Positions 1 through 61,392 are shown, counted from the stretch's first letter. The stretch: DNA of 64,000 bases from an uncultured Elusimicrobia bacterium (GCA_903867985.1 CAIPTO010000083.1:20664-84663); one strand, 5' to 3'. Notes: a model not told the origin generated them from the letters alone. Made by a program: numbers and translations.

Positions 1-30
1 GCGCCATAAGCTATAGGCTGTAAGCCATAG

Positions 31-66
31 GCCCTTAAGGAATCCCCTTAAGGGCTTATGTTTTAT
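31..66 (+). terminator. Intrinsic terminator-like hairpin for an upstream gene outside the window
   Basis: Perfect 10 bp stem gcccttaagg (31-40) / ccttaagggc (46-55) with a 5 nt loop, followed by T-rich ttatgttttat. Confidence 0.5.
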
Positions 67-115
67 ATTGTGCGCATGGACCGAAGCGTACAGCTTATGG
101 CTTATGGCGCTCTTA

Positions 116-124
116 TGATATAAT
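116..124 (+). promoter_or_regulatory. Extended -10 promoter element (TGaTATAAT) upstream of smc
   Basis: tgatataat at 116-124, 64 nt upstream of the smc ATG. No good -35, which is acceptable for an extended -10. Confidence 0.35.
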
Positions 125-187
125 AATGTTATAAACCCGCCGCGAGTTTACGGCGGCCGCCTGATTTTCATATAAAAGGACAATCTG

Positions 188-3100
188 ATGTATTTGAAAG
201 GTATTGAGATTTACGGTTTTAAGTCATTCGCGAACAAGGTTAAACTGCCGCTTAAACCCGGCATAACCTGCATCGTGGGTCCCAACGGCTGCGGCAAGTC
301 CAACGTGGTAGACTCGCTGAAATGGTGTATAGGCGAGATGTCCTGGAAGTCGCTTCGCATGCCGTCCATGATGGACGTCATATTTGCCGGCACCACCAAG
401 CGTTCCCAGCTAAATATGGCCGAAGTGGCCATGACCTTCGATAATGAATCCCGCAAGCTTCCTTTGGATTTCAGCGAAGTAACGGTAACCCGCAAGATCT
501 ACCGTTCCGAAGAATCCGAATATTTTATAAATAAGGTTCAGTGCCGCCTTAAAGATATCCGCGAGATGTTCCTGGACACAGGTGTCGGCACAGACGGCTA
601 CGCAATTATAGACCAGGGCGAAGTGGAATATGTCCTGTCCGCCAGCGCCGAGGAGCGCAGGGAGCTTTTTGAAGAGGCCGCCGGTGTTTCAAAATACAAG
701 GCCAAGCGCGAAGAAGCTTTGAGAAAACTGGAAAAAGTGGACGCGGATCTGGCGCGCCTGGCCGATTCCATGACCCTGATAGACGAGCAGATAAAAAAAC
801 TGGACGCCGAAGCCAAGCGCGCCCGCACCCAGCAGAAGTACAAGGAAGAACTCACGGCGGCTGAGGTCTCCATGCTGGTTAAGGAAATTTCCGGGTTCAA
901 CACTGAGGTGGAAGCTGAAAATGCAGCTCTTTTACCGGTGCAGAAGGATATCGAAGAAACCGCGACAGCCATAACCGCGCTTGAAGGCGAGCTCGCGGCC
1001 ATGAACCTTACGCTCACCCAGAGGCAGGAAGAAGAGCGGGTACTGAATGAAGCCATAGCGTCCGTAAAATTTGAAAAAGTCCGCCTTGAAGGCACCATCG
1101 TCAGCAACGGCAGTATGGCTGAAGTTGTAGCCAAACAGACAAAAACCGTTGAGGAGTCCGGGCTGCGCAATGATACGGCTATCGCGGCTGCCGCTCCCCG
1201 CATAGAAGAAACGCGGGCGGCCCTGGCAAACGGCGAAGCGGGACTGGGCGCGCTTAAAAATGATTATGAGACCGGCCTGGCGGAGCTTGCCAAGATAGAA
1301 GAGGAAATGAACTCCGTGGACGCCTCCACTAACGCCATAGAGAAAGACATAACAGCCGCTTACCAGACCGAAGTTGAAGTCTCCAGCGATATCGCCTCTA
1401 CAGGTTCCAGCATCGGCCACTACAAAGAAAATATTCTGAGTTTAAAAAAAGATCTGGAGGGCTTAAACGTCCGCCGCGCCGAAATTGCGGAGAAGCTTTC
1501 CGGTATTCGCGCCCGCTCGGCCGAGAATGAAGCGGCCCTGAACGCCGAAAAAGCCCTTCTCGCTGAAGCCGAAGCCGCCAGGAGAGCCTCCTCCGGCCGC
1601 CTGGACGCCATAATCCTCCGCCTGAACGAGTTGAACGCCGAAAAAACCGGCGCCCGCTCGCGCCTGGAAGCCATTCTGGCCCAGGGAGAAAAAGATTCTT
1701 ATTGGGTCGGGATCAACAATGTGCTCAATTCAGGCGTCTCCGGTATCCGGGGCACGCTTCGCCATCTCCTGACCGTCAAGAAAGAAGACAAGCTGGCAGT
1801 GGAAGAGGCGCTGGGCCGTTTCATGGACGCCGTCGTATGCGATAATTCCGAGCGCGCCCAGGAAGCAATAGATTATCTGAAACATCTGGGCAAGGGCCGC
1901 TGCCGTTTCCTCATCCTGGACAAGGTCAGTTCCGTTGGCGAACCCTCCGCCTGGGCTATCCCCAATGCGGTTAAGATCCGCGAGAAGATTTCAACCTCCG
2001 CCGAATACGACGCCGCGCTAAACCATCTTCTGAGCGGCATCTACTCTTCCGGCGGTTCCGTGATGGGCTCCTTCTGGGTGTCGGGCGGGGTTGAGGCGGT
2101 TACCTCAAACGAACCTTACTGGGAAGAGGAGGGCGACCTTAAGGACAAGATACGGGCTTACGAAGAAGAGGAGACCAAACTTTCCGCCGAAAAGGCAGAA
2201 GTCGCGGCTAAACTGGCTGAAGTCTCAGCCAGGGCCGAAGCTCTGGATATAAAGATAAACGATATCAATATGAACCTGCACCGCACGCAGGTGGAGACCG
2301 AGAACGCCGAGGGCGAAGCCGGGATCAACGCGCAGAATATTGAATTAATCTGCGGTGAAACCGCCAAAGCTGAAAGTGTCCTGGCTGACGCCGAAAGGCG
2401 CCTCACGGACTTAAACGCGCGGCTTGAGGACGCCAGACGGATATCCGAGAGTAAAAGGGCGGACATGGCCGCCCTGGCCGGCAAAAAGGATTCCCTGCAC
2501 TCGGCTTACTCCGGAGCCAAGCAAGATATCGGCGGCAAGAAAGCTAATCTGGAAAATCACCAGAAGAATCTGGAACTTATGAAGGAAGAGGCGGTCCGTC
2601 TGGAAAGTCATGTCGCCAGCCTGCGGGCCGAGAGGGAACACTCCGCCATCCGCGTGAAAGAACTGGCGGAACAAGCCGCCCAGCTTGTCATTGAGACCGG
2701 CGAGGCCCGCAACCGGCTTATGGAAGTTATGAGCGAGCTGGCGGAAAAAGAGATCATGGAGAAACAGCTGTCCGGTGAGACTAACGCGCTGCGCAACGAT
2801 TACGGCCGCCTGAACATAAACCTGAGCGACTCCAGGGAGCTGAGCGCGGAGAGCGAAAAAAAACGCTACGGCATAGAGCTAAGGATAAATACTTTAAAGA
2901 CTCGCAGCGAAGACCTGACCAAGAGGCTCAACGAGGAATGGAACCTGGTCCTGGAAGACGCCAGGGAAAAATTCGGCGCGGTTGAAGTGGACGCCGAACG
3001 GGTGAAATTCCTGCGTAAGCGCCTGGAGAATATGGGCGCGGTAAATATGACCGCCCCCGAGGAATACGACGCCCTGATCAACCGCTTCAATTTTATGAAT

Positions 3101-3679: not shown

Positions 3680-3801
3680 GCAGCGCTCTAGTACGACAGC
3701 GGGACAGCGCGGCAGTTTGAGATCCGACAGGGTATGTCGGGAATACTTTGTTTAAATGTCGTACTTGTTTGATGTAGTACTGCCGCTCTATCCAATAATT
3801 T

Positions 3802-4536: not shown

Positions 4537-4605
4537 GTTGTAAAGCGGAAACAGTTTGAGTTTTTAATTTTATAGCAGTTCGACGCGATAAGGATAAAAA
4601 AATTA

Positions 4606-4989: not shown

Positions 4990-5079
4990 GTCTTATAACA
5001 TAGGTGAGGCAGGAGTAAGAATCAAGTTTTAAAACCCTGTTTCCTCCCACTTACAGTTTTTAAAAAATAGGAGCACGAT

Positions 5080-5406
5080 ATGTCCAATGAAATACAGCTG
5101 ACAGACGCCAGTTTTGACCAGGAAGTTATCAAAAGCGCCATCCCGGCGCTGGTGGATTTTTGGGCGCCATGGTGCGGCCCCTGCAAAATGATCGCGTCCA
5201 CCATTGAAGAGCTGGCCAAGGAATACGAGGGCAAAGTTAAGGTTTGTAAATTGAACACCGACGAGAATCCTGATTCATCCGCCGCTTACCGCATTTCCGC
5301 CATCCCTACCATATTGTTGTTCAAGGGCGGAAAACTGGTGCAGGAACTTGTGGGTCTGCAGCCAAAAGATGAGCTCAAGCGTCATCTGGACGAGCTGATA
5401 AAATAG
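5080..5406 (+). CDS. trxA: Thioredoxin
   Basis: 108 aa with active site WAPWCGPCK. AGGAG RBS upstream. Confidence 0.95.
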   Translation: MSNEIQLTDASFDQEVIKSAIPALVDFWAPWCGPCKMIASTIEELAKEYEGKVKVCKLNTDENPDSSAAYRISAIPTILLFKGGKLVQELVGLQPKDELKRHLDELIK

Positions 5407-5513
5407 GGTACAGGGGTCAGGGTTGAGGGTAAAGAAATAAAGAAGTCCTCATCCTAACTCCTGACAGCATGCCGTATACCCTTTTTCACCCTCAACCCTA
5501 ACCCCTTTCCCCC
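5406..5513. repeat. Inverted heptamer word arrays (GGGTnnA x4, then nnnCCC-type words); G4-motif pair
   Basis: gggtaca ggggtca gggttga gggtaaa at 5406-5433. Complementary array of about four words (three clean heptamers tcaaccc taacccc tttcccc plus tttcaccc) within 5478-5513. agggttgagggt pairs with accctcaaccct. Confidence 0.8.
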
Positions 5514-5519
5514 TAGCGT

Positions 5520-8084
5520 ATGTCCAAAAAAACAATCTTTATCATAGACGCGCACGCGTTCCTGCATCGCAGCTATCACGCCTTGCCTAAATTGACAACC
5601 TCCAGAGGGGAGCCGGTCGGAGCTTTGTACGGTTTCCTGCGCCTGCTTCTTAAAATAAAAAAAGAGCACAAGCCGTACTACGCGGCCGTTTGTTTTGACG
5701 CGCCCGGGAGTACTTTCCGCGATGTCATTTATGCCGAGTATAAAGCCAATCGGAAAGAGATCGAACCCGATTTGCTGGCGCAGCTTAAAGCCGCCGCGGA
5801 ATTGCCTAAAGCGGTGGGGCTCAAAGCCGTGGTCTTGCCCGGTTATGAGGCTGACGATATTATCGCTACTCTGGCGCGCAGGTTCGCGGCCGCTGGTTAT
5901 GAAGCCGTCATTGTGACCGGCGATAAGGATGCCGCACAATTGGTTGGGGACGAAATAAAACTCTGGGACGGCAGCGCCGCCTCATTTTCCGGAGAGGCGG
6001 AAGTTATTGCTAAGTTCGGGGTTAAGCCTTCCCAGATAGCGGATTATCTGGCCCTTACCGGTGACGCTTCCGATAATGTGCCGGGTGTGGCCGGTATAGG
6101 CCCGAAGGGCGCGGCCAAATTGCTGGGGGCGTACGGCGCGCTGGAAAACATACTGAGCGCAGCCTCAGACCCGCGGCAGGCGGTCAAGGATAAATTATTG
6201 GCCAAGGTGGCAGGGCATAAAGATGAAGCCGCGTTGTCCAAGCGGCTTGTTACGCTTGAAGGCAAGGCTCCAGTAGAGGGTGATATAGATGAATTTGAGG
6301 TTAAAGCTCCTGACGCCGCTCTGGCCGCCGAACTCGCCCGGCGTTACGAGTTCAGGGATCTGGCCGCCGTAACTCCGCAGCAGACTCTGTTTGACGCGCC
6401 GCTGACGGCCGAGATGCCGCTTTCTGAAGTGCTGGCGCGCGGAAAGAGTGACGGTTTTATCTGCCTGGCCCATTCCCTTGGCGCGGTTTGCGCCGGCTCG
6501 GACAAGGGGGCGGCGTACTTCGGGCAAGGCGAGCTTAAAAGTGAAGATAAGGCCGGCCTTTCCGTCCTTGTGCAGGACAGCAGGGTTTTCAAGGTCGCGG
6601 CCGGTCTCAAGAGCGTTCTCCATCTCATTAATTTTGAGCCGACCCGCGAAATGAATAATTTTTTCGAACTTGAGATCGCTCATTCGCTTTTGAGCGCGCG
6701 CAAGAGCGATATCTCAAAACTGGTTTTTGAGAAGACAGGCGCTCTGACGCGGGAGGAAGGCTCCAGGGAGGAGCTCCTCACCGCGGCCGGAGCGATGGCG
6801 CGCATCTACCCAGACATCAAGAAGGAGCTGGCTTCGGCCGGGATGGAAAAGGTTTACTCCGAACTGGAGCTGCCGCTGATACCGGTGATCTACGCGATGG
6901 AAGCGGCGGGCTTCAGGGTGGATGTCGGGCTGCTCAGGGAACTATCAGAAGATTTTTCGGCCAAATTAGCGGCTATCGAGGCTGAGGCCGAGCGGCTTAC
7001 CGGCCATAAAATAAATCTAAATTCTCCCAAGCAGCTGGGCTGGCTTTTGTACGAGAAACTGAATATACAGCTGGATGACGCGCAGAAAAAGATGTTTAAG
7101 ACCAAGGATGGATACTCGACCGCGGAGGAGGTCCTCACTTTTCTCAAACCGGCCCATCCCGTCATAGAAAAGCTTCTGGAATTCCGCGAGATCTCAAAGC
7201 TTAAGTCCTCTTTCGTTGACAATCTCCTGGACGTTGCCGACGGGAATGGGCGGGTGCACAGTACATTTGAGCAGGCGGGCACGGCCACCGGCAGATTTTC
7301 AAGTTCCAAACCCAATCTGCAGAATATCCCGGTACGCTCCGCTTACGGACAGCTGGTGCGCCGCGCTTTCCGCGCCCGGAACGGAAGCTCGCTTATGAGC
7401 GCCGACTATTCGCAGATCGATCTGCGGGTGCTTGCCCATGTCTCCGGAGATAAAAATCTGCTGGCTGCTTTCCGCGCCAACGAGGATATACATTTGCGCA
7501 CGGCCAGCGAGGTTTTTCACGCCGCCCCCGAGCTGGTTACAAAGGAGATGCGGCGTTCAGCCAAGGCCATAAACTTCGGCATAGTCTACGGCCAGACCGC
7601 CCAGGGGTTGGCCCGGGAATTGGGCATACCAAGGGCGGAGGCGGCTAAATATATAAAGCATTATTTCGAGGTTTATTCGGGAGTTAAGTCCTGGATAGAC
7701 GGCACAATAGCCGCCGCAAAGATTAACGGTTGTGTTACCACTTTCACCGGCCGGCGGCGGGCCGTGCCGGATATCAACGGGACCAACGGCAATATGCGCG
7801 CTTTTGCCGAGCGCGTGGCGATGAATACGCCCATACAAGGCGGCTCAGCCGACATAATAAAGAAAGCCATGATCGATATCCACGCGAAGATAAAGGGCTC
7901 CGATAAGATAATCCTGGTGCTGCAGGTGCACGACGAGCTGGTCTTCGAGGTTAAAGCGGGTTATGAAACAGAGGCCGCGCTCATTATAAAGGACGGCATG
8001 GAGAACGCCTTCAAGCTTGAAGTGCCGCTGCGCGCCGATATAAAAGCCGGCCCCAACTGGCAGGACATGAAACCTGTTCTTTAG
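5520..8084 (+). CDS. polA: DNA polymerase I
   Basis: 854 aa. N-terminal 5'-nuclease domain (FIIDAHAFLHRSYHA, GDASDNVPGVAGIGPKGA). Pol motifs DYSQIDLRVLAH, RRSAKAINFGIVYG, QVHDELVFE. The middle domain lacks recognisable DxE / NxxxD / YxxxD 3'-5' exonuclease carboxylates (Taq-like). Confidence 0.95.
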   Translation: MSKKTIFIIDAHAFLHRSYHALPKLTTSRGEPVGALYGFLRLLLKIKKEHKPYYAAVCFDAPGSTFRDVIYAEYKANRKEIEPDLLAQLKAAAELPKAVGLKAVVLPGYEADDIIATLARRFAAAGYEAVIVTGDKDAAQLVGDEIKLWDGSAASFSGEAEVIAKFGVKPSQIADYLALTGDASDNVPGVAGIGPKGAAKLLGAYGALENILSAASDPRQAVKDKLLAKVAGHKDEAALSKRLVTLEGKAPVEGDIDEFEVKAPDAALAAELARRYEFRDLAAVTPQQTLFDAPLTAEMPLSEVLARGKSDGFICLAHSLGAVCAGSDKGAAYFGQGELKSEDKAGLSVLVQDSRVFKVAAGLKSVLHLINFEPTREMNNFFELEIAHSLLSARKSDISKLVFEKTGALTREEGSREELLTAAGAMARIYPDIKKELASAGMEKVYSELELPLIPVIYAMEAAGFRVDVGLLRELSEDFSAKLAAIEAEAERLTGHKINLNSPKQLGWLLYEKLNIQLDDAQKKMFKTKDGYSTAEEVLTFLKPAHPVIEKLLEFREISKLKSSFVDNLLDVADGNGRVHSTFEQAGTATGRFSSSKPNLQNIPVRSAYGQLVRRAFRARNGSSLMSADYSQIDLRVLAHVSGDKNLLAAFRANEDIHLRTASEVFHAAPELVTKEMRRSAKAINFGIVYGQTAQGLARELGIPRAEAAKYIKHYFEVYSGVKSWIDGTIAAAKINGCVTTFTGRRRAVPDINGTNGNMRAFAERVAMNTPIQGGSADIIKKAMIDIHAKIKGSDKIILVLQVHDELVFEVKAGYETEAALIIKDGMENAFKLEVPLRADIKAGPNWQDMKPVL

Positions 8085-8099: not shown

Positions 8100-8263
8100 G
8101 GTTCTGTCGGAGGCCCGGAACGCGAAAACGGTGTCGGCCACACCGTGGCCGCGCCTCCGGAGCGGGCCCAGTGTCGCCGGGCTCCACCCAGTCGCCGCGC
8201 TATGCAAGCGGCTCTTTCCGGTACGGTTTCGCTTATCCGGATCCCCCGCCACCCGCTCCAATT
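8100..8263. other. GC-rich multi-helix intergenic element (possible structured RNA; function unknown)
   Basis: Nested complementary segments. cggaggc 8108-8114 pairs with gcctccg 8153-8159. acggtgt 8128-8134 pairs with acaccgt 8140-8146; a mutually exclusive alternative is ggccac 8136-8141 with gtggcc 8145-8150. ggagcggg 8159-8166 pairs with cccgctcc 8252-8259. Confidence 0.3.
8217..8263 (+). repeat. 47 bp perfect direct repeat, copy A (left flank of decarboxylase gene)
   Basis: tccggtacggtttcgcttatccggatcccccgccacccgctccaatt, identical to 10069-10115. Confidence 0.95.
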
Positions 8264-8394: not shown

Positions 8395-10062
8395 ATGACA
8401 GAGCCACAATCCACTACTATCTCCCGCTATCTGCTTTACCGGCTGAAGGAAGCAGGCATCAATCATCTTTTCGGCGTGCCGGGCGACTATGTCCTCGATT
8501 TTCTGGACGAAGTTGTCGCCAGCCCGGTCCGGTGGGTGGGCACCTGCAACGAGCTTAACGCCGGCTATGCCGCTGACGGGTACGCCCGGATGAAGGGCGC
8601 GGGCGCGGCCGTGGTTACCTACGGGGTCGGCGGCCTGAGCATTCTTAACGCCGTGGCCGGCGCGTACGCCGAGCGGGTACCCCTTATTATCATCAGCGGC
8701 GCCCCGGCGAGCCGGCGTCGCGAGGCGGGGGCCCTCGTCCATCACCTTATAACCGATTATTATCTCCAGTTGGAGGTCTTCAAGAAAGTCACTACCGACG
8801 CGGCTATTCTCCTCAGGCCGGAAACGGCCCCGGACGATATCGATCGGATAATCCGCAACTGCATTATCCGTAAGCTGCCCGTTTACATCGAACTGCCGGC
8901 TGATCTCGCCCGCGCCTCCTGCCGCGCCCCCGGACCGCTCTCATTTGCCCCGGCGGAGCGCTCCGACGAGGACAGCCTTAAGGATTGTGTCGCGGAAGCG
9001 GCCGAAATGATAAATCAGGCTGCCTCACCCTTAGTGCTGGCGGGCGTAGAACTCTCGCGTTTCGGCCTGGGGCCCGACGCTCTCCGGCTGGTGGAGGCGG
9101 TAGAACTGCCCTTTGCTACCATGCTCAGCAGCAAGAGCGTTCTCCCGGAACTGCATCCCCAGTTCGTTGGCCTCTACCAGGGAGCGTGGAGCCGGGAAAG
9201 CGTCCGCCGGCAGGTGGAATCCTCCGACTGCCTGTTGTCGCTGGGGGTCTGGATGACCGACCTTGACACCGGCTTGTTCAGCTTAAAGATAGACAGCCGC
9301 CGGATGATCGCCGCCGCGAACGACCGCGTCCGTCTCAGGAATCACTACTACGATAATGTCCGGCTCGGCGATTTCGTCCGGGCCCTGATACCGGCCATAC
9401 GGCCGCGGTCCTACCTGGCTTCCCACCCGGCCGCGACTAACCTTGTCCGCAAGCCCTTCACGGCCGACCCGGACCGGCCCCTCACCGCCCCTCGGGCCTA
9501 CGAGCGCCTGAACTGTTTCCTCAACGACAAGATGGTCCTGCTGGCCGAACCGGGCGACGCTTTCTGCGCGGCGCCGGAGTTCCAGATAGAGGAGGCGCGC
9601 AACTTTATAGTGCAGTGCTATTACTGTTCGATCGGTTATTGCACTCCCGCCGCGCTGGGGGTGGGCCTTGCGGAGCCCGGGAAGAGGCCCGTGGTGCTTA
9701 CCGGAGACGGCGCTTTCCAGATGACGGCTCAGGAGCTTTCCACTTTGATCCGGCTGAAATGCCCAGCCATCGTGCTGGTGGTCAACAATGACGGCTACCT
9801 CATCGAGCGCGTTCTTCACGAGGACGGGCCTTACAACGATATCCAGCGGTGGGACTACGCGAAGCTTCCGGCGGCTTTTGCCGGCGACGGTCAGGCTATC
9901 GGCATCCGGGTCACCACGGAGGGCGAGCTGGAGGGCGCACTTGCCGTGGCTTCAAAGGAAGCAGACAAGCTGGTTCTCATCGACCTCTGTCTGACCGGCC
10001 GCGAATGCTCCCAGGGGCTGGCGCGTCTGGGCGAATCTTTCCGCTCTACGCAGCGCAAATAG
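8395..10062 (+). CDS. Thiamine-diphosphate-dependent alpha-keto-acid decarboxylase (IpdC / PDC family)
   Basis: 555 aa. N-terminal FGVPGDYVLDFLDE and NELNAGYAADGYAR, catalytic His pair in ALVHHLI, TPP-binding GDGAFQMTAQEL...VVNNDGY. The layout closely resembles indolepyruvate / phenylpyruvate decarboxylases. Visibly more GC-rich than its neighbours. Confidence 0.8.
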   Translation: MTEPQSTTISRYLLYRLKEAGINHLFGVPGDYVLDFLDEVVASPVRWVGTCNELNAGYAADGYARMKGAGAAVVTYGVGGLSILNAVAGAYAERVPLIIISGAPASRRREAGALVHHLITDYYLQLEVFKKVTTDAAILLRPETAPDDIDRIIRNCIIRKLPVYIELPADLARASCRAPGPLSFAPAERSDEDSLKDCVAEAAEMINQAASPLVLAGVELSRFGLGPDALRLVEAVELPFATMLSSKSVLPELHPQFVGLYQGAWSRESVRRQVESSDCLLSLGVWMTDLDTGLFSLKIDSRRMIAAANDRVRLRNHYYDNVRLGDFVRALIPAIRPRSYLASHPAATNLVRKPFTADPDRPLTAPRAYERLNCFLNDKMVLLAEPGDAFCAAPEFQIEEARNFIVQCYYCSIGYCTPAALGVGLAEPGKRPVVLTGDGAFQMTAQELSTLIRLKCPAIVLVVNNDGYLIERVLHEDGPYNDIQRWDYAKLPAAFAGDGQAIGIRVTTEGELEGALAVASKEADKLVLIDLCLTGRECSQGLARLGESFRSTQRK

Positions 10063-10068: not shown

Positions 10069-10115
10069 TCCGGTACGGTTTCGCTTATCCGGATCCCCCG
10101 CCACCCGCTCCAATT
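10069..10115 (+). repeat. 47 bp perfect direct repeat, copy B (right flank of decarboxylase gene)
   Basis: Identical to 8217-8263. Begins 7 nt after the decarboxylase stop codon. Confidence 0.95.
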
Positions 10116-10148: not shown

Positions 10149-10973
10149 ATGAACTTTTCACTGCGACCACCATCATTGAACGACTTGCCGCCGGCTACCC
10201 GGGGACTGGTGGCGGCTTCTTTCTGCGGGTGGATACTGGAGATGGCGTTCAGGGGCCCGCTGAATTATTATTTCGGTCTAGTGCCGCTCAAAGTGGCCGG
10301 CTCCGGCTGGCTCTGGCAGCCGATTACCTATATCTTTATTCACGGCGGGTTCTGGCATTTCCTCTTCAACGCTTTCATGCTCTGGATGATGGGGGCAATT
10401 ATTGAGCCGGTCATGGGTTCCAGGAAATTCTTTGTTTATTTCCTTTTCTGCGGCGCGGCGGCGGGGGTGATCACCGTGGCGGTCAGCCCCGGTTCCGCGA
10501 CAGCCGTCATAGGCGCTTCCGGAGCTGTTTACGGACTGCTATACGCCTTTGCCGCGCTTTACCCCGATCAGACTGTATATATGTATTTCCTTTTCCCTAT
10601 GAGCGCGCGCCAATTAGTGATGTTCCTTGCGGGGCTTTCCCTGGTGCTCAGCTTTACCACGCCTAATTCAAGCGTGGCCAACTTTACGCATTTGAGCGGG
10701 CTTGCGGCGGGCTGGCTGTATTTTAAAACCACAAGGCGGTTTGAGAGCAGGGCGGCAGCGCGGCAGCGGGACAGTGCGGCAGGAACAGGGCCAGGATTTT
10801 GGGCCAGGATTTTTGGCGGCTTGTCGCGGGAGACTGGCGACGGTGAAATGGAAACTTCCAGGAAAGTGGACGCCATTCTTGAAAAGATTTCCAGGAAAGG
10901 CGAAGCCGCCCTGACAGCCGGTGAACTCCGCGCACTGGATGAATATGCCCGAAATAAGGGGGGGAGGGCGTAG
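10149..10973 (+). CDS. Rhomboid family intramembrane serine protease
   Basis: Multi-TM protein with HGGFWHFLFNAFMLW, catalytic GASGAVYG and a downstream His in FTHLSGLAAG. Carries a soluble C-terminal tail of about 70 aa. Confidence 0.85.
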   Translation: MNFSLRPPSLNDLPPATRGLVAASFCGWILEMAFRGPLNYYFGLVPLKVAGSGWLWQPITYIFIHGGFWHFLFNAFMLWMMGAIIEPVMGSRKFFVYFLFCGAAAGVITVAVSPGSATAVIGASGAVYGLLYAFAALYPDQTVYMYFLFPMSARQLVMFLAGLSLVLSFTTPNSSVANFTHLSGLAAGWLYFKTTRRFESRAAARQRDSAAGTGPGFWARIFGGLSRETGDGEMETSRKVDAILEKISRKGEAALTAGELRALDEYARNKGGRA

Positions 10974-11035
10974 GACAGCGCGGCAGAGCGGCAGCAAGAC
11001 GGCGCGGCAGGGGGGGCGGCGGAGGCTGCCAAAAA
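10974..11035. repeat. Octamer-phased word array (CGGCAGnn family)
   Basis: ggacagcg cggcagag cggcagca agacggcg cggcaggg ggggcggc, closed by ggaggctgcc. Starts at the first base after the rhomboid stop codon. Confidence 0.75.
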
Positions 11036-11053: not shown

Positions 11054-11695
11054 ATGAATAAAGAAATGAAACAACTTTGCCGCCGGTTCAAAACAATGAA
11101 AGGCAAGACCATTATCGGGCTTACCGGGGCCGCCGCTTCGGGTAAGAGCGCCGCCCTTGAGTGCTTCAGAAAACTGGGCGCTTTTTGCGTTTCCACGGAC
11201 GCTCTCGCAAAAGAAGTGTTGACATCCAGGGCTTGTTATAATAAAATTTTAAGGAAGTTTGGTTCCGGGGTATTCCTAAAAGACGGTTCGATAGACAGAA
11301 AGAAGCTCGCCAAAGAAGTTTTTTCTGACAAATCCAAACGAAAACGGCTAGAAAGCATACTTCATCCCGAAATTCTCAAACACGCTCTCGCATTAATCAA
11401 AACATCCAATGACAATGTAATCATTTTAGAAGTCCCGCTGCTGTTCGAAGCCGGCCTTGAACAATGCCTCGCTTTAACAATATGCGTGGATGCACCCTAC
11501 AGATTGCGCCTTGAACGCGCGGCGGTAAGGGGGTGGACTTCCGGAGAGTTCAGGCGCAGGAGCGGGGCGCAGTTTACAGCCGGAGAAAAGGCGGCCAGGG
11601 CGGATATTGTGATAGGGAACGCAGGGTCAGTGAGAGCCCTTAGGACTAAAGTCGGGTGGGTTTACGATTTTTTAAATAAATTGGAGAAAAAATGA
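11054..11695 (+). CDS. coaE: Dephospho-CoA kinase
   Basis: P-loop [12 protein letters not shown] and overall CoaE layout. The start could instead be the internal Met at 11096. Confidence 0.8.
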
Positions 11696-13128: not shown

Positions 13129-13129
13129 A

Positions 13130-13213
13130 TAAGGGTATAGGGTGTAGGGGGAAAGGGTTGAGTTATAGGGAACTCCTTACCCTAAACCCTGACACCTGAA
13201 CCCTCTACCCTGT
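13130..13213. repeat. Inverted heptamer word arrays (nnTAGGG, then CCCTnnn); G4-motif pair
   Basis: tataggg tgtaggg ggaaaggg ... tataggg, followed by ccctaaa ccctgac acctgaa ccctcta ccct. Confidence 0.8.
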
Positions 13214-13228
13214 TGCGGTGGAGACCGT

Positions 13229-14155
13229 TTGCGAATAGCCACAAAAAGTTATCTTATAGCGGTGGTCTGCGTGGCCGCGCTGGCGATGTTTTCTGCCGCA
13301 TTCATTCCTGCGGGCGGAAGTTCGGATTACGCCAGATTTTCCGTGCTTACTCCTTCCGGCCCGGCGGAACCGCCGCCTGAAGCTTTCCGCAGGATACCGC
13401 GCCTCATACACGCCCGGCACAAAGTTCTTAAGGGCGAGGACATCAGGACTATCGCGGCCGATTACGGCACGGACGTCAGGTCACTCCAAAGCACGAATAA
13501 TAACGACTTCATCTTTCTTTCCAGAGGAGGGTATATCCGGGTGCATAACGGCCGGGGATACCTTTACGAGGCGGTTGTGGACGGAGAGACCCTGGAAGGC
13601 ATTGCCCGCCGCTTTAAGCCGAATGAAACTAATCTGAAAGACTTTAAGGCCGCGATTATCAAAGACAACCAGCTGCCGGCGATGGCGATGTTGGTCCCGT
13701 ATAAATTTAAGAAAGGCGACCGCTTGCAGCTGCCGGCAGTCTACCTGAATTTAGACACTTACCGAATGCCGCTTCCGTATTTTTCCAGAATCAGTTCCAA
13801 CTTTGGCATGCGCTATCATCCGGTTCTGAAACGCAAAGTCTTTCATAAGGGCTGCGACATCCCGATGCCCGTAGGTACGCCTGTATTCCCCTCCAGATCA
13901 GGCACGGTTACGTTTGCCGGCTGGAAGGAGGGCTACGGCAATATTGTGGAGGTGCGCCACAAGGACGGTTCGCTTACGCGATACGGACACCTTTCCAAAG
14001 TGTCGGTGGGCGTCGGAGAGACGGTTCAGAAATCCAAAAACATGCTGGGGCGCGTAGGCGCCACCGGCATGTCCACGGGGCCTCACCTGCATTTTGAAAT
14101 AATCACGCCTTTAGGCAAATCCGTGAACCCCCTGGCCAGGATCGGTAAGCGATAA
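13229..14155 (+). CDS. LysM-domain M23 family metallopeptidase
   Basis: TTG start behind GGTGGAG. Signal/TM segment, two LysM-like segments (HKVLKGEDIRTIAADYG; VVDGETLEGIARRF). M23 motifs HKGCDI and GPHLHFEI. Confidence 0.85.
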   Translation: MRIATKSYLIAVVCVAALAMFSAAFIPAGGSSDYARFSVLTPSGPAEPPPEAFRRIPRLIHARHKVLKGEDIRTIAADYGTDVRSLQSTNNNDFIFLSRGGYIRVHNGRGYLYEAVVDGETLEGIARRFKPNETNLKDFKAAIIKDNQLPAMAMLVPYKFKKGDRLQLPAVYLNLDTYRMPLPYFSRISSNFGMRYHPVLKRKVFHKGCDIPMPVGTPVFPSRSGTVTFAGWKEGYGNIVEVRHKDGSLTRYGHLSKVSVGVGETVQKSKNMLGRVGATGMSTGPHLHFEIITPLGKSVNPLARIGKR

Positions 14156-14160
14156 CCGGA

Positions 14161-14297
14161 TCTAAAGCCGTTTAGAGGCAAAGCCGTCCAGATGTAAAGC
14201 GATTTAGCAAAATTGCCAACCTGCTTTGCCTCCAGACTGCTGGACTGCTTTGCATCCAAGCTGCTTTACATCCGGGTTGGACTGCTCTGCCTCTGCA
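14161..14297. repeat. Word arrays of the AAAGC / TTTAGAG family with complementary CTGCTTTG octamer array
   Basis: 5' part: taaagcc gtttagaggcaaagcc gtccagatgtaaagc gatttagc. 3' part: ctgctttg cctccaga ctgctgga ctgctttg catccaag ctgcttta catccggg. Confidence 0.75.
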
Positions 14298-14302
14298 TTT
14301 TA

Positions 14303-14708: not shown

Positions 14709-14730
14709 CGCGCATGGCGTAGTTTTCAGA

Positions 14731-14771
14731 GGCAGGCAAATCATGATATACATGTTTGCCTGCTTTTTTTT
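14731..14771 (+). terminator. Rho-independent terminator after rpmE
   Basis: Stem gcaggcaaa (14732-14740) / tttgcctgc (14755-14763), then a run of eight T. Confidence 0.8.
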
Positions 14772-14812
14772 AGCCCGATACTGCCGGCCTGACAGTTGCC
14801 TGAACGGGACAC

Positions 14813-16712: not shown

Positions 16713-16756
16713 ATGCAAAGCCATTTAGAGGCACGGCAGTTTAGAGGGTGAAAAAT

Positions 16757-18013: not shown

Positions 18014-18037
18014 TTTTTTGCTATGGCAAAAAAATGC

Positions 18038-18065
18038 CATAGGCCGTACGCCGTATGCCATAAGC
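18038..18065. repeat. Four tandem heptamers CrTAnGC
   Basis: cataggc cgtacgc cgtatgc cataagc. Preceded by hairpin ttttttgc-tatg-gcaaaaaa (18014-18033). Complementary words (ggcctatgcc) at 18111-18120. Confidence 0.8.
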
Positions 18066-18140
18066 TTTTAAGAAGTTTCTTAACATTTCTGCGTAAAGCC
18101 TAAAGTATATGGCCTATGCCAATATGTGTTTTTTAAAATT

Positions 18141-19427: not shown

Positions 19428-19517
19428 CGATAAGCAGTAAGGATTAAGTGGTGAGCGGAAAATGGTAAGTTTGGAAAGCGCACAACTTAATCCTTTACTG
19501 TATGGAATGGGAGAATT

Positions 19518-22547: not shown

Positions 22548-22703
22548 CCAGCAGGGAGTTATAAGGATTAAGGGATCATGGTAAATGAAACGGAAATGGG
22601 GCGAAATTAATCCTTAATGCTTAATTCTGCCGGTTTTTGATTTTTTTCAAAAATGCTAGACTATAAACATTGAGGGCCGCGGGTTAAAAGGTAAGGAGTT
22701 TTT

Positions 22704-23648: not shown

Positions 23649-23725
23649 TAAGTCTTAAGTGGTAAGTCGTAATCGTAAAACTGTGAAGCTTAATATTTAC
23701 CCATAATTCTTAATGGAGCGCTTAA
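23649..23725. repeat. Entire intergenic spacer is a 7 nt-phased array (TAAnnnn x about 11)
   Basis: taagtct taagtgg taagtcg taatcg taaaact gtgaagc ttaatat ttaccca taattct taatgga gcgctta. Confidence 0.85.
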
Positions 23726-24292: not shown

Positions 24293-24431
24293 TTGACGTA
24301 AAATGTGAAGCGTAAAGCGCAAAGAGTTAAAAACTTGTGGGGAATTTCGCCTGCTATGGCCATTTACGGCTTACGCTTTCCGCTTTACGATGAGTGTGGA
24401 AATAGATTTTATTTCGATAAGGTAATTCTTC

Positions 24432-27014: not shown

Positions 27015-27015
27015 A

Positions 27016-28475: not shown

Positions 28476-28579
28476 ACAACGGTATGGAAAGATACAAAGC
28501 AATTTAGACGCATAGCAATACGGGAATTTGGCTAAATCACTTTATATCTAAACTGCTTTACCTCCAGCGGGCTTTACCT

Positions 28580-29542
28580 TTACTTTGTCCGCGTTGAGAA
28601 GGCAGAAATGTAATCCATGAAAGCGGTGGCCGCTTTTCGTTCTGGCAGGCGCGCTATTTCCGTTTCGAGGGCGCGGATTTTTACCGCAGCCAGAGCCCGT
28701 GCGCTGTCGGTGAATCCGTTCTCCCTTATGATGGCCGCTATGCGGAGCGCGGGAGCCAGATCTCTGTTCTCGCCTGCTTGCAAGGCCGTAAGATTTCTTT
28801 CTATTTCTTCGCAGAAGCGGGAATCGTTTATAGCAAGTATCAGGGGGAGGGTGGTGCGACCCTCCGTAATATCTTTTAATGCGTCCTTGCCGGTCAGTCC
28901 GGTTTCGCCTTCAAAGTCCAGAATGTCGTCCACAATCTGGAAGACTACTCCGGTTTCCCTGCCTATGGTCTCGCAGGCGTCGCGCAAATCCGGCTTTTTA
29001 GCCACACATGCCGCAGTCGTGGCGCACCAGCGGAAGAGTTCTCCGGTCTTAAGCTGTAAGATGCGCTCCGCCTGTTCGGCCGAAATCTTTTTATAGCGGA
29101 GGTTTTCCTCAAGGAGAGCGCCTTCTGTCATGCTGCGCACGGTTTTTACCAGGTCGCCGGGTGTCTCGGGGGTGATATTAACGGCGTAATCAAAAGCGAA
29201 TGATGCAACCAGGTCCCCAACCAGTATGGCGGTATTGACTCCCAGCTTTTCGTTCAGTGTGGGCAGGCCGCGCCTGAGAGACGACCTGTCGACGCAGTCG
29301 TCGTGCATAAGTGAAGCTGTGTGGATTAATTCAGCCGTGGCGCCGATGCGTTCGGCCGCGGCACGCTGGAGGCCGAGCGCGTCTCCGAGCAGCAGCGTGA
29401 AGCGTGACCTGACCGCCTTGCCCATAAAATTAAAGTTGTTCCTGCTGCGGTCGTATACCGTCTTATCCACGCGGTCCAGCAGCGAATTTATTTCCAGATT
29501 TATGCGGTGGAGTGAATCGTCAATAGAAATGATCTTATTCAT
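28580..29542 (-). CDS. trans-Polyprenyl diphosphate synthase (IspB/HepT-like)
   Basis: First Asp-rich motif LMHDDCVD and second FQIVDDILDF. Confidence 0.88.
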   Translation of the reverse strand: MNKIISIDDSLHRINLEINSLLDRVDKTVYDRSRNNFNFMGKAVRSRFTLLLGDALGLQRAAAERIGATAELIHTASLMHDDCVDRSSLRRGLPTLNEKLGVNTAILVGDLVASFAFDYAVNITPETPGDLVKTVRSMTEGALLEENLRYKKISAEQAERILQLKTGELFRWCATTAACVAKKPDLRDACETIGRETGVVFQIVDDILDFEGETGLTGKDALKDITEGRTTLPLILAINDSRFCEEIERNLTALQAGENRDLAPALRIAAIIRENGFTDSARALAAVKIRALETEIARLPERKAATAFMDYISAFSTRTK

Positions 29543-32682: not shown

Positions 32683-32778
32683 ACAGAGGGCTGGGAACTG
32701 ATAATTAAGTTCGGTCAGACCTTAAAAACATACGGCTTGCAGTCTGCGGCTTATGCCGGGTATTTTTTAGGAGAAATT

Positions 32779-46797: not shown

Positions 46798-46915
46798 AGG
46801 TATCCTTTTAGGGAGTCAGCGGGTTGAAAAGTTCGGCGGAGTCAGGGAGTTTAAAAGTAAAAAGTTCAAAATTCTGAAACTTCTGAACTCGCAACTTTCG
46901 AAACCCCTGAACTTA

Positions 46916-48007: not shown

Positions 48008-48124
48008 ATGACATTATAACTAAAGTGGATAGTGGTTAACGGACAAGGAGAAGATTGAAATATGAAAAAGGGAGCAGCGTTTTAGCGCCGCTCCCTTTTA
48101 ATCTGTTTGTTATCCGCCACGTCC

Positions 48125-48865: not shown

Positions 48866-49135
48866 TGAAACCTCCCTTACCTTACTGTATTCTGAGCGCG
48901 GGAAGTTACTACTTGCCCCGCTATCTAGAGTCTACCAAAAAACCATATACATAACAAACGCGCCCGCAAATTAGAAGCGACAGCGCAGCAGCAAGACAGC
49001 GCGGCAACGCAAATCCGACAGTGGTCAACTATAAGCCTAAACGGGGTTATCAGTTACCACTAGTCACGGTTTTTGACGAGTCCGGGTGGAAATTTTGTAT
49101 TATATAATTGATTTGAAAGGTTCTTTGAAGGAATT

Positions 49136-51561: not shown

Positions 51562-51662
51562 CTTCGGGATATGGATGCACAGCAGTTTAGATGTAAAGCA
51601 ATTTCGCTAAATTGCTGAATTGCGGTGCATCTAAATGGCTAGATTGCTTTCATCTCGTTCTT

Positions 51663-55087: not shown

Positions 55088-55124
55088 GTGGTTGTCTCCT
55101 TAATCGACGAAAATGAAAATTTAC

Positions 55125-55249
55125 CGCCATATCCGCCATTGGCCATTCGCGGAAAAATCAGGCAACTCCTTTAAAGCATATGGCGTACGGCTAATAGCAA
55201 GTGGCAGTCCTTTTCTGTTTATGGCAAACGGCTAACGATACTCTGGCGC
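55125..55249. repeat. Inverted word arrays (GCCAT words, then nnnnGGC/ATGGC heptamers) in the tdh-kbl spacer
   Basis: cgccata tccgccat tggccat (55125-55150). Then atatggc gtacggc taatagc aagtggc (55178-55205) and tttatggc aaacggc ... gcctatggc. Confidence 0.8.
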
Positions 55250-56287
55250 CTATGGCGTAAGAATAACTTTGCCGCATTTCTTTTCTTTCGACCCTACCAG
55301 TTCAAAGGCTTTTTTGAAATCCTTGAATTTGAAAGTATGGGTGATTATCGGTCGTGGATCTACCGCGTTTGATTTCAGTATGCTTTCCATCTTGTACCAG
55401 CTCCTGAAAATCTCGCGTCCGGCCACGCCGTAGAGGCGTATGCCTTTTGAGATTATGTCTTTGGCATAATCAAGTTCTATTTTCTTGCCGGGCATACCGA
55501 AGGCGGTGAATCTGCCTCCGTAGCGGAGCACGGATAACCCCAGCCCTATGGCTTTAGGGTCCCCTGACATTTCTATGACGGTATCAACGCCGTCCGGAGA
55601 TTTCGCGGCGTGCTTTATCTTTGTAAAAATATCCTCGGACTGCGGGTCCAGAACGTGGCCCGCGCCCGCTTTTTTTGCCAGCTTCTGCCGGTAGGCGGAG
55701 GAGTCGAGCGCGATAATGTTCTTGGCGCCGCCGGCTCTGGCTATGCCTATGCCGAACAGCCCCTGGGGATCGCAGCCGGAGATAAGCACTGTTTTGCCCA
55801 CGATGTCCTCGGCCAGTACGCCGTAGACGGCGTTGCCGAATGGCTCCATGATGGCGCCAATATCTTTCAGCGAATCGTCTGTGTGCTTCCAGGCGCAGCG
55901 GGCCGGCACGGCCGCGTATTCGGCGAAGCCGCCCGGCGTGTCTATGCCTATCATGCGCACATTGGCGCATACATGGCGCTGATCATTGCGGCACTGATAG
56001 CAGAGACCGCAGAAAATGTGGGATTCAACGGACACGAAATCGCCTTTATTAAAGCCTTTATCCAACTGGCCCATTTCCACTACTTCGCCACAGAGCTCGT
56101 GCCCGAATATCATGGGGGTTTTGACCCGGTCCGGCGCCCAGCCTGTCCAGTTGTAGATCGCCAGATCATTCTCGCAAATGGCGGCGTGATCCACCCTCAA
56201 AAGCAGCTCGTCTTTATTGATGACCGGGACGTCGCAGTCTGTATATTCGGCGCCGGGTCCGGGAGATAGTTTGCAGATAGCTTTCAT
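55250..56287 (-). CDS. tdh: L-threonine 3-dehydrogenase (Zn-dependent MDR)
   Basis: GHELCGEVVEMG catalytic Zn motif, structural Zn cysteines CGLCYQCRNDQRHVC. Adjacent to kbl. Confidence 0.88.
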   Translation of the reverse strand: MKAICKLSPGPGAEYTDCDVPVINKDELLLRVDHAAICENDLAIYNWTGWAPDRVKTPMIFGHELCGEVVEMGQLDKGFNKGDFVSVESHIFCGLCYQCRNDQRHVCANVRMIGIDTPGGFAEYAAVPARCAWKHTDDSLKDIGAIMEPFGNAVYGVLAEDIVGKTVLISGCDPQGLFGIGIARAGGAKNIIALDSSAYRQKLAKKAGAGHVLDPQSEDIFTKIKHAAKSPDGVDTVIEMSGDPKAIGLGLSVLRYGGRFTAFGMPGKKIELDYAKDIISKGIRLYGVAGREIFRSWYKMESILKSNAVDPRPIITHTFKFKDFKKAFELVGSKEKKCGKVILTP

Positions 56288-58509: not shown

Positions 58510-58556
58510 AGGGCTGGATTATGTCTGGTCCGTCGTTCTTCCAATTCCTGGATTCT

Positions 58557-60250: not shown

Positions 60251-60371
60251 GTTCAGTATTTAAGACCGTGCGATTCAACATCTTTGGATTACGATTTAAA
60301 AGCGATAATCCTTTAATTAGTTTATCCTTTAAGGATTGTCCGCGCAAGCGCAGATTCCGCCCAGGCCCTTC

Positions 60372-61001
60372 TCATGCCGCGGCTTTCAGGAATTCAGCCT
60401 CGCTTTTAGCGGCCAGTTTCATATAAATATTACATTCCTTCTGCACCCCGATGGTGGAACTGTTTCCGTTGTAGGAGTGACCGGGGTAAAGCGTTGTTTC
60501 TCCGCTGAGGGCGGCGAGCTTTAAAAGACTAATGCGCAGAGCTTTGGGGTCGGAGCCGGGCAGATCCACTCTGCCGCATCCGCCCACAAAGAGCGTGTCT
60601 CCCGTGAACACGCAGCCGCCTGCCACATAAGAGACAGAACCGGGGGTATGTCCCGGAGTATGTATCACCTTTATTTTAACGCGCCCGAGAACGAGTTCGT
60701 CATTGTCTTTAATCAGGTTCAGCGGTTTAATGTCGTCACCCAGGAGGAACAGGTCGTTCTTATGCATGGTAAGGGTAAGGGCCTTATCCTTATCCAGAAA
60801 ATAGCGGGCGGCGTTGACGTGATCAGGATGAGCGTGAGTCAGAAGCAGGAGTTTAAGGGCGAGTTTTTCTTTTTGCAGGAAGTCCTCGATTTTTTTCGGC
60901 TGCCAGGCCGGGTCGATAACGGCGGCTTCTCTCAGATGTGTGTCCCAGACCACGTAGGAAAAATTATCCATGGGGCCCAGCTTGAGTTGTTCTGCCTTCA
61001 T
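60372..61001 (-). CDS. MBL-fold metallo-hydrolase (glyoxalase II-like)
   Basis: HxHxDH motif LLTHAHPDHV. Downstream HTPGHTPGS. Confidence 0.85.
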   Translation of the reverse strand: MKAEQLKLGPMDNFSYVVWDTHLREAAVIDPAWQPKKIEDFLQKEKLALKLLLLTHAHPDHVNAARYFLDKDKALTLTMHKNDLFLLGDDIKPLNLIKDNDELVLGRVKIKVIHTPGHTPGSVSYVAGGCVFTGDTLFVGGCGRVDLPGSDPKALRISLLKLAALSGETTLYPGHSYNGNSSTIGVQKECNIYMKLAAKSEAEFLKAAA

Positions 61002-61285
61002 TTATCGTCCTTTGGCGGCGGAAAGCGGTATTCTATTTCGCCGGGTTTTATTAGGCCCAGTTCTTTGCGGGCCGTATGTTCTATCTGCCCGGGTTCCTTC
61101 ATTGTTGAAAAACTTTTTTCGAGTCCCAACTCCTCCGATTTAAGTTCTATTTTCTGGTTTTTAAGCCGCCTTAATTCCAGGTAGTTTTTTATCAGCGACC
61201 TGAAGCCTCTGTTTGCCAATAGAAATATAGTCAGCGCAAGTAGAATAATATATTTAAGCTTGGCTTTATGCTTTTTAGGCTGCAT
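60998..61285 (-). CDS. ftsB: Septum formation initiator (FtsB/DivIC family)
   Basis: 95 aa. N-terminal TM, coiled coil, C-terminal IEHTARKELGLIKPGEIEYRF. Immediately downstream of eno, a commonly conserved synteny. Confidence 0.8.
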   Translation of the reverse strand: MQPKKHKAKLKYIILLALTIFLLANRGFRSLIKNYLELRRLKNQKIELKSEELGLEKSFSTMKEPGQIEHTARKELGLIKPGEIEYRFPPPKDDK

Positions 61286-61289
61286 AGTT

Positions 61290-61392
61290 GAGGTTGTGAA
61301 ACAACGAACAGCGAAACAGCGAAGCAGTCGGCTGACAAGAATTTTATTCTCTGCGCGCCATTTCGCTGCTTCCCTACTTCGCTGTCAGCTGA
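61290..61392. repeat. Inverted word arrays (GAAACAGC words, then complementary GCTG words) between eno and ftsB
   Basis: gaaacaac gaacagc gaaacagc gaagcag tcggctgacaag ... atttcgctgcttc cctacttcgctgtcagctg. Confidence 0.75.

Follow-up and report, generated by a model that had tools for sequence, protein, structure and literature searches.

The DNA analysed here is a 64-kb stretch from an uncultured Elusimicrobia bacterium (GCA_903867985.1 CAIPTO010000083.1:20664-84663; referred to in its full length as the window), and the elements in question are intergenic arrays of degenerate 7- or 8-nt words, most of which are paired with arrays of the reverse-complement words. The window is a housekeeping chromosome stretch in which smc, trxA, polA, rho, rpmE, prfA-prmC-murA-folC, tdk, valS, nusB, ligA, purH, eno and other genes were assigned with Pfam. 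The gene map was produced by greedy calling of open reading frames (ORFs) followed by Pfam correction and contained 47 genes. A total of 41 spacers with 4,264 nt were scored, and the coding DNA amounted to 59.7 kb. Mechanical ORF starts extended into the arrays, and homology with relatives set the folC start at the ATG at 18149, not at 18126. The polA start was given as 5520 in some source annotations and approximately 105 nt downstream in others, while the TTG start of purH at 51612 overlapped the hairpin at 51562-51660. No match at gathering score to Rfam 15 and no tRNA or tmRNA gene was found in the 64 kb, and identification of the arrays as a known RNA family or tRNA was rejected.

The Rho protein of the window was 66-74% identical to Rho of Elusimicrobia metagenome-assembled genomes (MAGs), and its thymidine kinase (TK) was 84-94% identical to TK of many Elusimicrobiales MAGs. 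Several lake metagenomes independently yielded the same clonal population as the window. Loci from other genomes were given L-numbers. Relatives with syntenic loci were found through TK homologues (L087, L088 and L090-L096, of which L088 is a GWF2_52_66-like genome), and 75 Rho-centred loci from other bacteria were used as controls. The GTDB Elusimicrobia representatives L007-L010 and L046, with Rho 66-74% identical, had no periodic signal and were too distant as comparators.

The fraction of same-base matches at each lag was compared with 300 dinucleotide shuffles. Spacer DNA exceeded the shuffles at lag 7 (z = 7.7), lag 8 (z = 5.3), lag 14 (z = 5.2) and lag 16 (z = 6.0), whereas lags 4-6 and 9-13 were within approximately 2 standard deviations of them and coding DNA showed the lag-3 (codon) series alone. 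The preliminary description of this DNA, which had been made from the sequence alone, had expected a lag-7 and lag-8 enrichment of intergenic over coding DNA against shuffled controls, and this was borne out; all of the word strings quoted in it were also found within 1 nt of where it had placed them. A lag-7 array was called stringent if 14 or more of 21 positions matched within 28 nt. The spacers (4.3 kb) contained 14 such arrays and the coding DNA (59.7 kb) contained 2, a density of 3.24 versus 0.034 per kb (approximately 95-fold). Lag-8 arrays numbered 4 in spacers and 2 in coding DNA, and lag-16 arrays 2 and 1, respectively. The figure of at least 19 array-bearing spacers in the preliminary description was slightly generous, since approximately 14 passed the stringent thresholds and 18 were visible by eye. 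Its statement that the words vary at 2-3 positions held in aggregate, where variation was concentrated in columns (sum of squares 280 versus 240 ± 9.7 under uniform mutation), but single arrays were too short for this test. Approximately 70 of the 75 control loci, five more distant Elusimicrobia included, showed no periodic signal. Overall, the shuffles, the coding control and the control loci ruled out an artefact of chance or composition. Perfect tandem units were also present, at 93-106 in the window and at 5540-5579 in L088 (GAGTCAAG three times).

The arrays began 0-10 nt past stop codons. In the window, all of them lay between co-directional genes except for the one at 48975, whose flanking genes are divergent, and the four convergent spacers, 8-47 nt long, were array-free. 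Many arrays lay within operon junctions, 8-25 nt before the next ribosome-binding site (RBS), as from 5512 to 5520 and from 19500 to 19518. The placement at gene ends and inside operons that had been described earlier was found again, but the divergent promoter regions named with it came down to the single locus at 48975. The stop codon of the upstream gene was often part of the first word, as in L088 (TAGGAGTC TAGGAGTC AAGGAGTC) and at 19425 in the window (TAGCGA TAAGCAG TAAGGAT). Within 35 nt past the stop codons, sense stop triplets exceeded reverse-complement ones by 87 to 51 (53 versus 31 in the window and 34 versus 20 in L088).

Each element measured approximately 60-130 nt and consisted of a short, mostly non-periodic apex between arms of 2-6 degenerate units of 7 or 8 nt, or of 16 nt in one family. 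Five pairs of an array and its reverse complement took in 10 of the 14 lag-7 arrays, and the longest inverted repeats of the window were located in the spacers singled out by the preliminary description. Its claim that most arrays are answered by reverse-complement words was correct for these 10, but the arrays at 10974, 16713, 23649 and 48975 were essentially direct, with little or no reverse-complement arm. The stems were made of 4-7-bp helices split by 1x1 to 3x3 internal loops at the word period. The clearest stem, at 5537-5630 of L088, had a five-unit GAGTCAAG-type array facing five GACTC-NNN units, in which the five core bases were preserved and the three linker bases bore no relation to each other. 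When the register was shifted by ±7, 8 or 16 nt, complementarity stayed near that of the best one (for example, 19/21 versus 15/21, or 15 versus 15), which indicates that the arms are an array of a word followed by an array of its reverse complement and not unique palindromes. Mirror-copied arms were also found, at 2708-2835 of L088. With RNAfold, the spacers had a mean z of -1.55, and 10 of 35 reached -2.3 or lower, compared to a mean of -0.59 for 40 coding windows (Mann-Whitney p = 0.03).

As had been noted before, most array loci lacked a U-tract, and T-tracts were found at two array hairpins only. The combination of a GC stem of 5-15 bp, a short loop and a U-tract that marks intrinsic terminators was seen at 26-60, followed by TTTTAT, and at 22548-22632, followed by a T-run, and at no other array hairpin. 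Two canonical intrinsic terminators were present in the same window (Table 1), so the organism does not lack ordinary ones.

Among 25 Elusimicrobia hairpins, 18 had a 5' half that exceeded the 3' half in purine content by more than 0.1, and 1 showed the reverse. This purine-first arrangement is identical on either strand and is thus a property of the inverted repeat itself. Mimicry of Shine-Dalgarno (SD) and anti-SD sequences by the purine and pyrimidine arms was ruled out, as SD-like 4-mers numbered 40 compared to 45 ± 7.5 expected from composition. Selection on one RNA strand through G:U pairs was also considered and amounted to a weak trend only (p = 0.17). An apex palindrome, TAAGGAAnTCCTTA, proposed as common to all hairpins, was present in approximately 8-9 of 22 with a modest enrichment. 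Five independent short-read contigs stopped in hairpin loops, namely the ends of L003-L005 (window approximately 5443-5458) and the starts of L222 and L224 (window 14194-14198); array hairpins thus fragment short-read assemblies.

Table 1. Array elements and terminators of the window, with comparable hairpins of Acidobacteriota control loci (positions prefixed by locus number). F1 to F7 are the word families given in the text.
Position	Strand	Family	Feature	Remarks
1..112		F1	Hairpin; 5' arm at 3-32 of four GCCATAA-type heptamers, 3' arm at 86-110 of TTATGGC words	z = -8.6; 88% over 25 nt
26-60			Terminator-like hairpin nested in the 1..112 hairpin	Followed by TTTTAT
3683..3793		F3	Hairpin of GACAGCG/CGGCAG words directly past the smc stop codon	Related to 10969
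5403..5517		F2	Hairpin with arms of GGGTNNN x4 and NNNACCC x4	Inverted repeat 84% over 31 nt; stop codon TAG within first word; apex related to that of 13129
10973..11030	+	F3	Direct octamer array GACAGCGC GGCAGAGC ...	Reverse-complement partner merely a short GGCTGCC
13129..13216		F2	Hairpin between rho and the M23 peptidase gene; 4-6-bp helices with 1-nt mismatches at the word period	The two genes abut in relative L096
14156..14300		F4	Hairpin of 16-nt units (two octamers each)	Extended -10 promoter-like TGGTATAAT follows, upstream of rpmE (read by eye; the promoter scan did not report it)
14728..14771	+		Canonical intrinsic terminator, GC stem and T8 after rpmE	Structure outside the array families, for contrast
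16713..16747	+	F4	Two direct 16-nt units between prmC and murA, no reverse-complement arm	94% over 17 nt to 14151
18014..18125		F1	Hairpin between murA and folC	z = -4.6; orthologous to the L088 4108-4243 array
19428..19505		F5	Hairpin (TAAGCAG TAAGGAT TAAGTGG ...)	z = -5.6/-8.0; stop triplet opens 4 of the first 5 words
22548..22635		F5	Terminator-like hairpin, followed by TTTTTGATTTTTTT	T-tract 22632-22650; upstream of the conserved promoter-like motif of the epimerase-TK operon
23649..23725	+	F5	Direct array of TAAGTNN heptamers, weak reverse complementarity	Junction 39-62 nt or overlapping in relatives
24293..24395		F6	Hairpin of GTAAAGC words at the tdk-DUF772 junction	
28495..28585		F4	Copy between two minus-strand genes; weak fold	82.5% over 40 nt to 14151
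46798..46915		F7	Hairpin of mixed 7/8/9-nt words (GAGTCAG.. / AGTTCAGAA..)	
48068-48103			Second canonical intrinsic terminator, GC stem and T-tract	
48975..49027	+	F3	Direct array; sole array-bearing divergent spacer	87% over 30 nt to 10969
51562..51660		F4	Hairpin after ligA, reaching into the called TTG start of purH	
55108..55250		F1	Words GCCATNN ... NNATGGC	Fold no better than shuffles
61290..61395		F3	Octamer hairpin (AACAGCGA-type words) directly past the minus-strand enolase stop codon	
L081 329-410 and 9248-9323			CTTGGTA.../...ACAAAGC hairpin, twice	Opposite (pyrimidine-first) polarity
L073 11252-11335 and 13859-13955			GTGACAG x4 facing CTGTCAC; AGCGATT facing GCTAACA	
L025 8763-8856			Heptamer array and reverse-complement array	

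The words fell into approximately seven families, each recurring at 2-6 loci within the 64 kb and in L088: GCCATAR (F1), GGGTNNN (F2), GACAGCG or CGGCAGNG (F3), the 16-mer AAAGCnnTTTAGAnG (F4), TAAGGAT or TAAGTGG (F5), GTAAAGC (F6) and mixed 7/8/9-nt words (F7). Among the spacers of the window and two relatives, 26 pairs had a 12-mer in common compared to 3.7 ± 2.0 in shuffles. With blastn, non-orthologous spacers were 82-89% identical over 27-40 nt, non-periodic apexes included, and were linked as 14151-28498-51557, 5402-13124-L088_13147 and 10969-48861; W13125 and W5400 of the window and L088_13160 aligned through the apex. The shared word families and homologous apexes at non-orthologous sites indicate dispersed repeat families and not unrelated products of local slippage. 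The earlier remark that the sequences differ between loci was accordingly half true. No near-identical copies were found within the 64 kb, where the best non-orthologous matches were those above. Words of family F3 were also observed as octamers (GGCAGCGC GGCAGCGG GACAGTGC GGCAGG) inside the rhomboid coding region, in its C-terminal linker at 10745-10785, approximately 190 nt upstream of the F3 array past the rhomboid stop codon. A metagenome scan with CCCTAAACCCTNNNNCCTGAACCCT for copies of family F2 was uninformative, as it returned mostly eukaryotic telomere-type (TTTAGGG)n arrays. The matches of that scan (L097-L176) were mostly long (CCCTAAA)n telomere-type arrays, presumably of microalgae, while L097 and L115 resembled two-armed hairpin arrays.

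No target-site duplication was found at three junctions compared in filled and empty form (tdk-DUF772, rho-M23 and TPR-Tricorn), where the boundaries were blurred by divergence. The 47 window genes included no Y1/RAYT (REP-associated tyrosine transposase, REP being repetitive extragenic palindrome) and no DDE transposase. The sole transposase-related gene of the window encodes a DUF772-only protein of approximately 165 aa (24432-24929), which lies directly after tdk in every relative examined (L087, L088 and L090-L096). It was syntenic in array-free relatives as well and did not correlate with the arrays. DUF772 is the N-terminal domain of IS5/IS1182-type transposases, and the protein may be a domesticated transposase fragment. 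Two hairpins of L088, at 13195-13231 and 14658-14782, had different arm words and an identical apex, GAAATAAGGAACTTGAT...TGTGCTTCGCAC. The shared apex contained GCGAAGC, a stable mini-hairpin sequence, and one copy had an extra insert of approximately 85-95 nt; it may be a very small element targeting hairpin tips.

The same gene junctions were compared among relatives. In L095 and L096 (GC 64-65%), the prfA-prmC-murA-folC-ROK-lptC-like and epimerase-tdk-DUF772 clusters overlapped or abutted, with spacers of -16 to +7 nt. In L087, the epimerase-tdk spacer was -4 nt and the tdk-DUF772 spacer 19 nt; L090-L092 had a TAATG overlap at tdk-DUF772 and epimerase-tdk spacers of 39-55 nt, and most of these junctions were short in L094 (GC 62%), with 23-50 nt between the genes. 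Canonical terminators were present at gene ends of all these compact relatives (L087, L090-L092 and L094-L096). At these junctions, the window, L088 and L093 (GC 52-54%) had spacers of 12-176 nt. Most of the longer spacers contained arrays, and the lag-7 z was 8.6 in L088 and the lag-8 z 4.3 in L093. The comparison suggests that the array-bearing spacers were created or enlarged in this sub-lineage relative to its compact sister genomes. Alignment of orthologous spacers, which had been proposed earlier as a check, thus placed arrays at the same junctions in L088 and L093, some of them with changed words, and, apart from the direct array of L094 described below, none in the compact relatives.

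The murA-folC array was orthologous and recognisably conserved between the window and L088. At other orthologous junctions, different words occupied the same site, and unit number also differed between relatives. In the tdk-DUF772 spacer, the unique 3' 40 nt were 97.5% identical between the window and L088, and both arms of the hairpin were built of GTAAAGC in the window and of GCCATAN in L088, with ACGGCTTAyG as residual homology. Since the word differs between the genomes and is the same in both arms, the two arms have evidently changed together. At folC-ROK, L094 had a direct GACTCTCA-type array alone, which in L088 was the 3' arm of a full two-armed hairpin; one-arm stages therefore exist. 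In addition, two other repeats were observed in the array-free relative L095: a perfect 28-nt inverted repeat containing ATGACTAT twice (1240-1345), and, apart from it, a GC-rich repeat dispersed over three spacers (8823-9050, 11068-11250 and 13854-14120). In the control set, Acidobacteriota (L081, L073 and L025) had the same kind of hairpin of a heptamer array and a reverse-complement array, with words of their own (Table 1), and L029 had a perfect direct octamer simple sequence repeat.

On balance, we lean towards reading the elements as lineage-specific dispersed hairpin repeats of the kind of cyanobacterial short tandemly repeated repetitive (STRR) sequences and REPs, with 7- or 8-nt arms that evolve by slippage, lying between a stop codon and the next RBS or promoter. 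The periodicity, inverted pairing, families, gain relative to compact sisters, two-arm co-variation and polarity are what was observed. Replication slippage by units of 7-8 nt would make the arms grow and turn over; a loop of this length is too long for mismatch repair. A slippage-type process was among the earlier proposals, and the perfect tandem units and the differences in unit number between orthologous spacers support it. The opposite arm would follow through inverted duplication (template switching) or because pairing is selected for. Periodic arms can pair again in whatever register is available, so that a duplication in one arm would never be disruptive and stems could lengthen stepwise. 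The elements would be co-transcribed and fold into long stems of 4-7-bp helices with small internal loops. At most they would serve as generic 3' or intercistronic stem-loops, in the manner of REPs and bacterial interspersed mosaic elements (BIMEs), in mRNA-end protection, partial termination or cistron uncoupling, or they would merely be tolerated.

Several points weigh against this reading. Local slippage does not explain families at unlinked loci, so that some copy mechanism is needed, and the reading does not account for the purine-first order or the 7-8-nt period. No unit-number polymorphism was found in approximately 10 independent assemblies of the population, although these were clonal with zero SNPs (single-nucleotide polymorphisms) and had little power; for the same assemblies, with identical spacers in a clonal population, the idea of hypermutable contingency loci was unsupported. 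An RNA-level role of the hairpins is possible. Most loci can form the long imperfect RNA hairpins that the preliminary description had envisaged, but the spacers at 22548, 23649, 28503, 51562 and 55088, all cited in it, folded no better than shuffles. The stabiliser, processing or terminator role suggested with them may exist, but the sense fold was more stable than the antisense fold in just 16 of 25 hairpins (G:U pairs 99 versus 73, Wilcoxon p = 0.17).

The strongest rival is that the elements are non-autonomous mobile elements, similar to miniature inverted-repeat transposable elements (MITEs) or to REP doublets forming hairpins (REPINs), moved whole by a transposase or RAYT encoded elsewhere, with the periodic arms as subterminal repeats. 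We consider this possible but unlikely. The families with homologous apexes at non-orthologous loci and in different genomes speak for it, together with insertions of 100-140 nt where relatives have junctions of 0-10 nt, the two L088 hairpins with an identical apex insert between different arm words, and the perfect 28-nt inverted repeat with a tandem octamer in L095. The arms are inverted repeats as in MITEs, but no target-site duplication accompanied them at the three filled and empty comparisons, the copies were at best 82-89% alike over 27-40 nt, and the window offered no Y1 or DDE transposase apart from the DUF772-only gene that array-free relatives also have in synteny. The first word often contained the stop codon of the upstream gene itself and one-arm stages exist, both of which also count against mobile elements. 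A dedicated copy-and-grow mechanism, either a small mobile element that targets hairpins or an activity of a polymerase or of repair that extends both arms symmetrically by 7-8 nt at a time, would operate alike in unrelated phyla, namely in the Elusimicrobiales clade, some Acidobacteriota (L081, L073 and L025), Xanthomonas and heterocystous cyanobacteria, and would leave a fixed purine-first polarity; we regard it as doubtful. If true, it would imply a new class of self-assembling intergenic element and not ordinary microsatellites.

Stop codons within first words, the sense stop triplets enriched in the first 35 nt, the one-arm arrays and the absence of arrays from relatives would all be expected if each spacer had independently amplified a stop-adjacent 7-8-mer and later gained an inverted copy by template switching, as a local neutral by-product without dispersal or function. 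This is improbable, as GACAGCG, the 16-mer AAAGCnnTTTAGAnG and non-periodic apexes recurred at unlinked loci far above chance and the convergent spacers, which should fill up as well if unconstrained, were array-free. It is also clearly improbable that the hairpins are the main terminators or attenuators of the organism, acting without a U-tract in a factor-independent or Rho-assisting manner. Arrays do begin at stop codons, promoter-like motifs follow some of them (14156-14300 and 22548-22635) and two have T-tracts (26-66 and 22632-22650), but canonical terminators of GC stem and T-tract occurred in the same window and in array-free relatives, convergent gene ends had no arrays, and many arrays lay inside operon junctions just before the next RBS. 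Arrays of protein-binding sites, another of the earlier proposals, are very improbable. Heptad operators with a 7-8-nt period are known for omega of pSM19035 and as ParG boxes, and ribbon-helix-helix (RHH) proteins polymerising on 7-8-bp heptads, or Csp/S1-type proteins with approximately 7 nt per domain, would be the candidates. The period fits these operators and candidates discussed for TAACTGA repeats (PMC4679880), and cores were more conserved than linkers, as at 5585-5624 of L088, where GACTC was kept and the 3-nt linkers were random. However, the 64 kb contain at least seven cores unrelated to one another, orthologous sites differ in their words, no regulator gene adjoins the arrays in the window, and close relatives with the same genes lack the arrays, all of which argues against binding by a protein.

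Other features of the window were observed apart from the arrays. A perfect 47-nt direct repeat (8217-8263 and 10069-10115) flanked a thiamine pyrophosphate (TPP)-enzyme gene (8395-10062), and the segment at 8-10 kb had a GC content of 0.61 compared to approximately 0.53 elsewhere; the arrangement resembles a cassette insertion or the junction of a recent duplication. An ORF of 3,111 aa was located at 32737-42072. Giant genes (2,419-3,902 aa) were present at the corresponding position in L088 and L094-L096, and faint-to-moderate matches of the CarboxypepD_reg, SdrD_B and FlgD_ig type were found in the proteins of these relatives.

Heptamer repeats were noted in 2007 to be over-represented among bacterial repeats. 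The preliminary description knew of no account of phased word arrays such as these, but degenerate heptamer arrays, often in inverted pairs, have been described in Xanthomonas and Nostoc (PMC4692102). In Xanthomonas, 183-186 (GGGANTN)n loci were found, 89-93% of them intergenic. A mean distance of 28 nt separates them from the upstream ORF, their flanking genes are mostly co-directional and rarely divergent, and at 70-75 of approximately 185 loci convergent (inverted) pairs could form stem-loops (Rehm et al. 2015, PMC4692102). Between Xcc and Xac, these arrays vary in length and sequence in the same neighbourhoods; most are transcribed, no function was found, slippage was proposed as their origin, and similar G-rich heptamers, GGGGA(C/T)T, occur in Nostoc (PMC4692102). 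The elements described here resemble them in having degenerate heptamers with a core, a bias to spacers, a position near the 3' end of the upstream ORF, inverted pairs and variation between relatives. At least 2-3 head-to-tail 7-nt units, non-coding bias, location with inverted pairs and variation between relatives, by which repeats of the STRR and Xanthomonas type are recognised, were all found here, and family F2 (GGGTNNN x4) is a formal G-quadruplex motif, as are the G-rich repeats of the Xanthomonas and Nostoc type. Unlike the Xanthomonas arrays, those described here belong to approximately seven word families, most of them not G-rich, have periods of 8 and 16 as well, are short (2-6 units) and are in the majority inverted pairs, with family-specific non-periodic apexes, purine-first polarity and an Elusimicrobiales host.

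Heptanucleotide repeats of the STRR type were reportedly described in cyanobacteria by Mazel et al. in 1990. TAACTGA direct repeats, known from Beggiatoaceae, cyanobacteria and Bacteroidetes, lie immediately before start codons, with only one indirect repeat reported (MacGregor 2015, PMC4679880). Both share with the present elements heptamers at many intergenic sites and lineage specificity, but their arrays are mostly direct, near-perfect and built of one to three fixed heptamers. REPs and BIMEs have a plausible role as mRNA 3' stem-loops. As in REP, BIME and REPIN, families of imperfect palindromes were found after stop codons and inside operons, species-specific and present or absent between close relatives, and to this extent the earlier exclusion of classical REPs and BIMEs was too broad. 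As differences, the conserved 5' GTAG/GTGG of REPs was missing by inspection (GTAG occurred in some F1 and F2 words at no fixed position, and not in F3 or F4), no RAYT gene was found among the window genes, near-identical copies were absent from the 64 kb and the arms were internally periodic. Genome-wide surveys report, in the parts available to us, dispersed intergenic stem-loop families of approximately 50-150 nt (PMC1590033, PMC2267715); these share dispersal and size with the elements here, and a 7-8-nt periodicity of the arms is not described in those parts. The heptad operators of RHH proteins and type Ib-II centromeres have one cognate heptad beside par or regulated genes, whereas the arrays here have at least seven unrelated cores, adjoin no RHH or par genes and differ in their words between orthologous sites.

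Compared with the heptamer repeats known from cyanobacteria (1990) and Xanthomonas (2015), the present lineage is a cleaner natural experiment, with the same operon with and without elements, several families, one-arm and two-arm stages and a strict polarity. It makes testable how stem-loops are built de novo, why the unit is 7-8 nt and whether insertions uncouple formerly overlapping genes. Compared with the known systems, what is new here is a multi-family, mostly inverted-pair form of the known intergenic heptamer repeats, in a phylum where they had not been noted.

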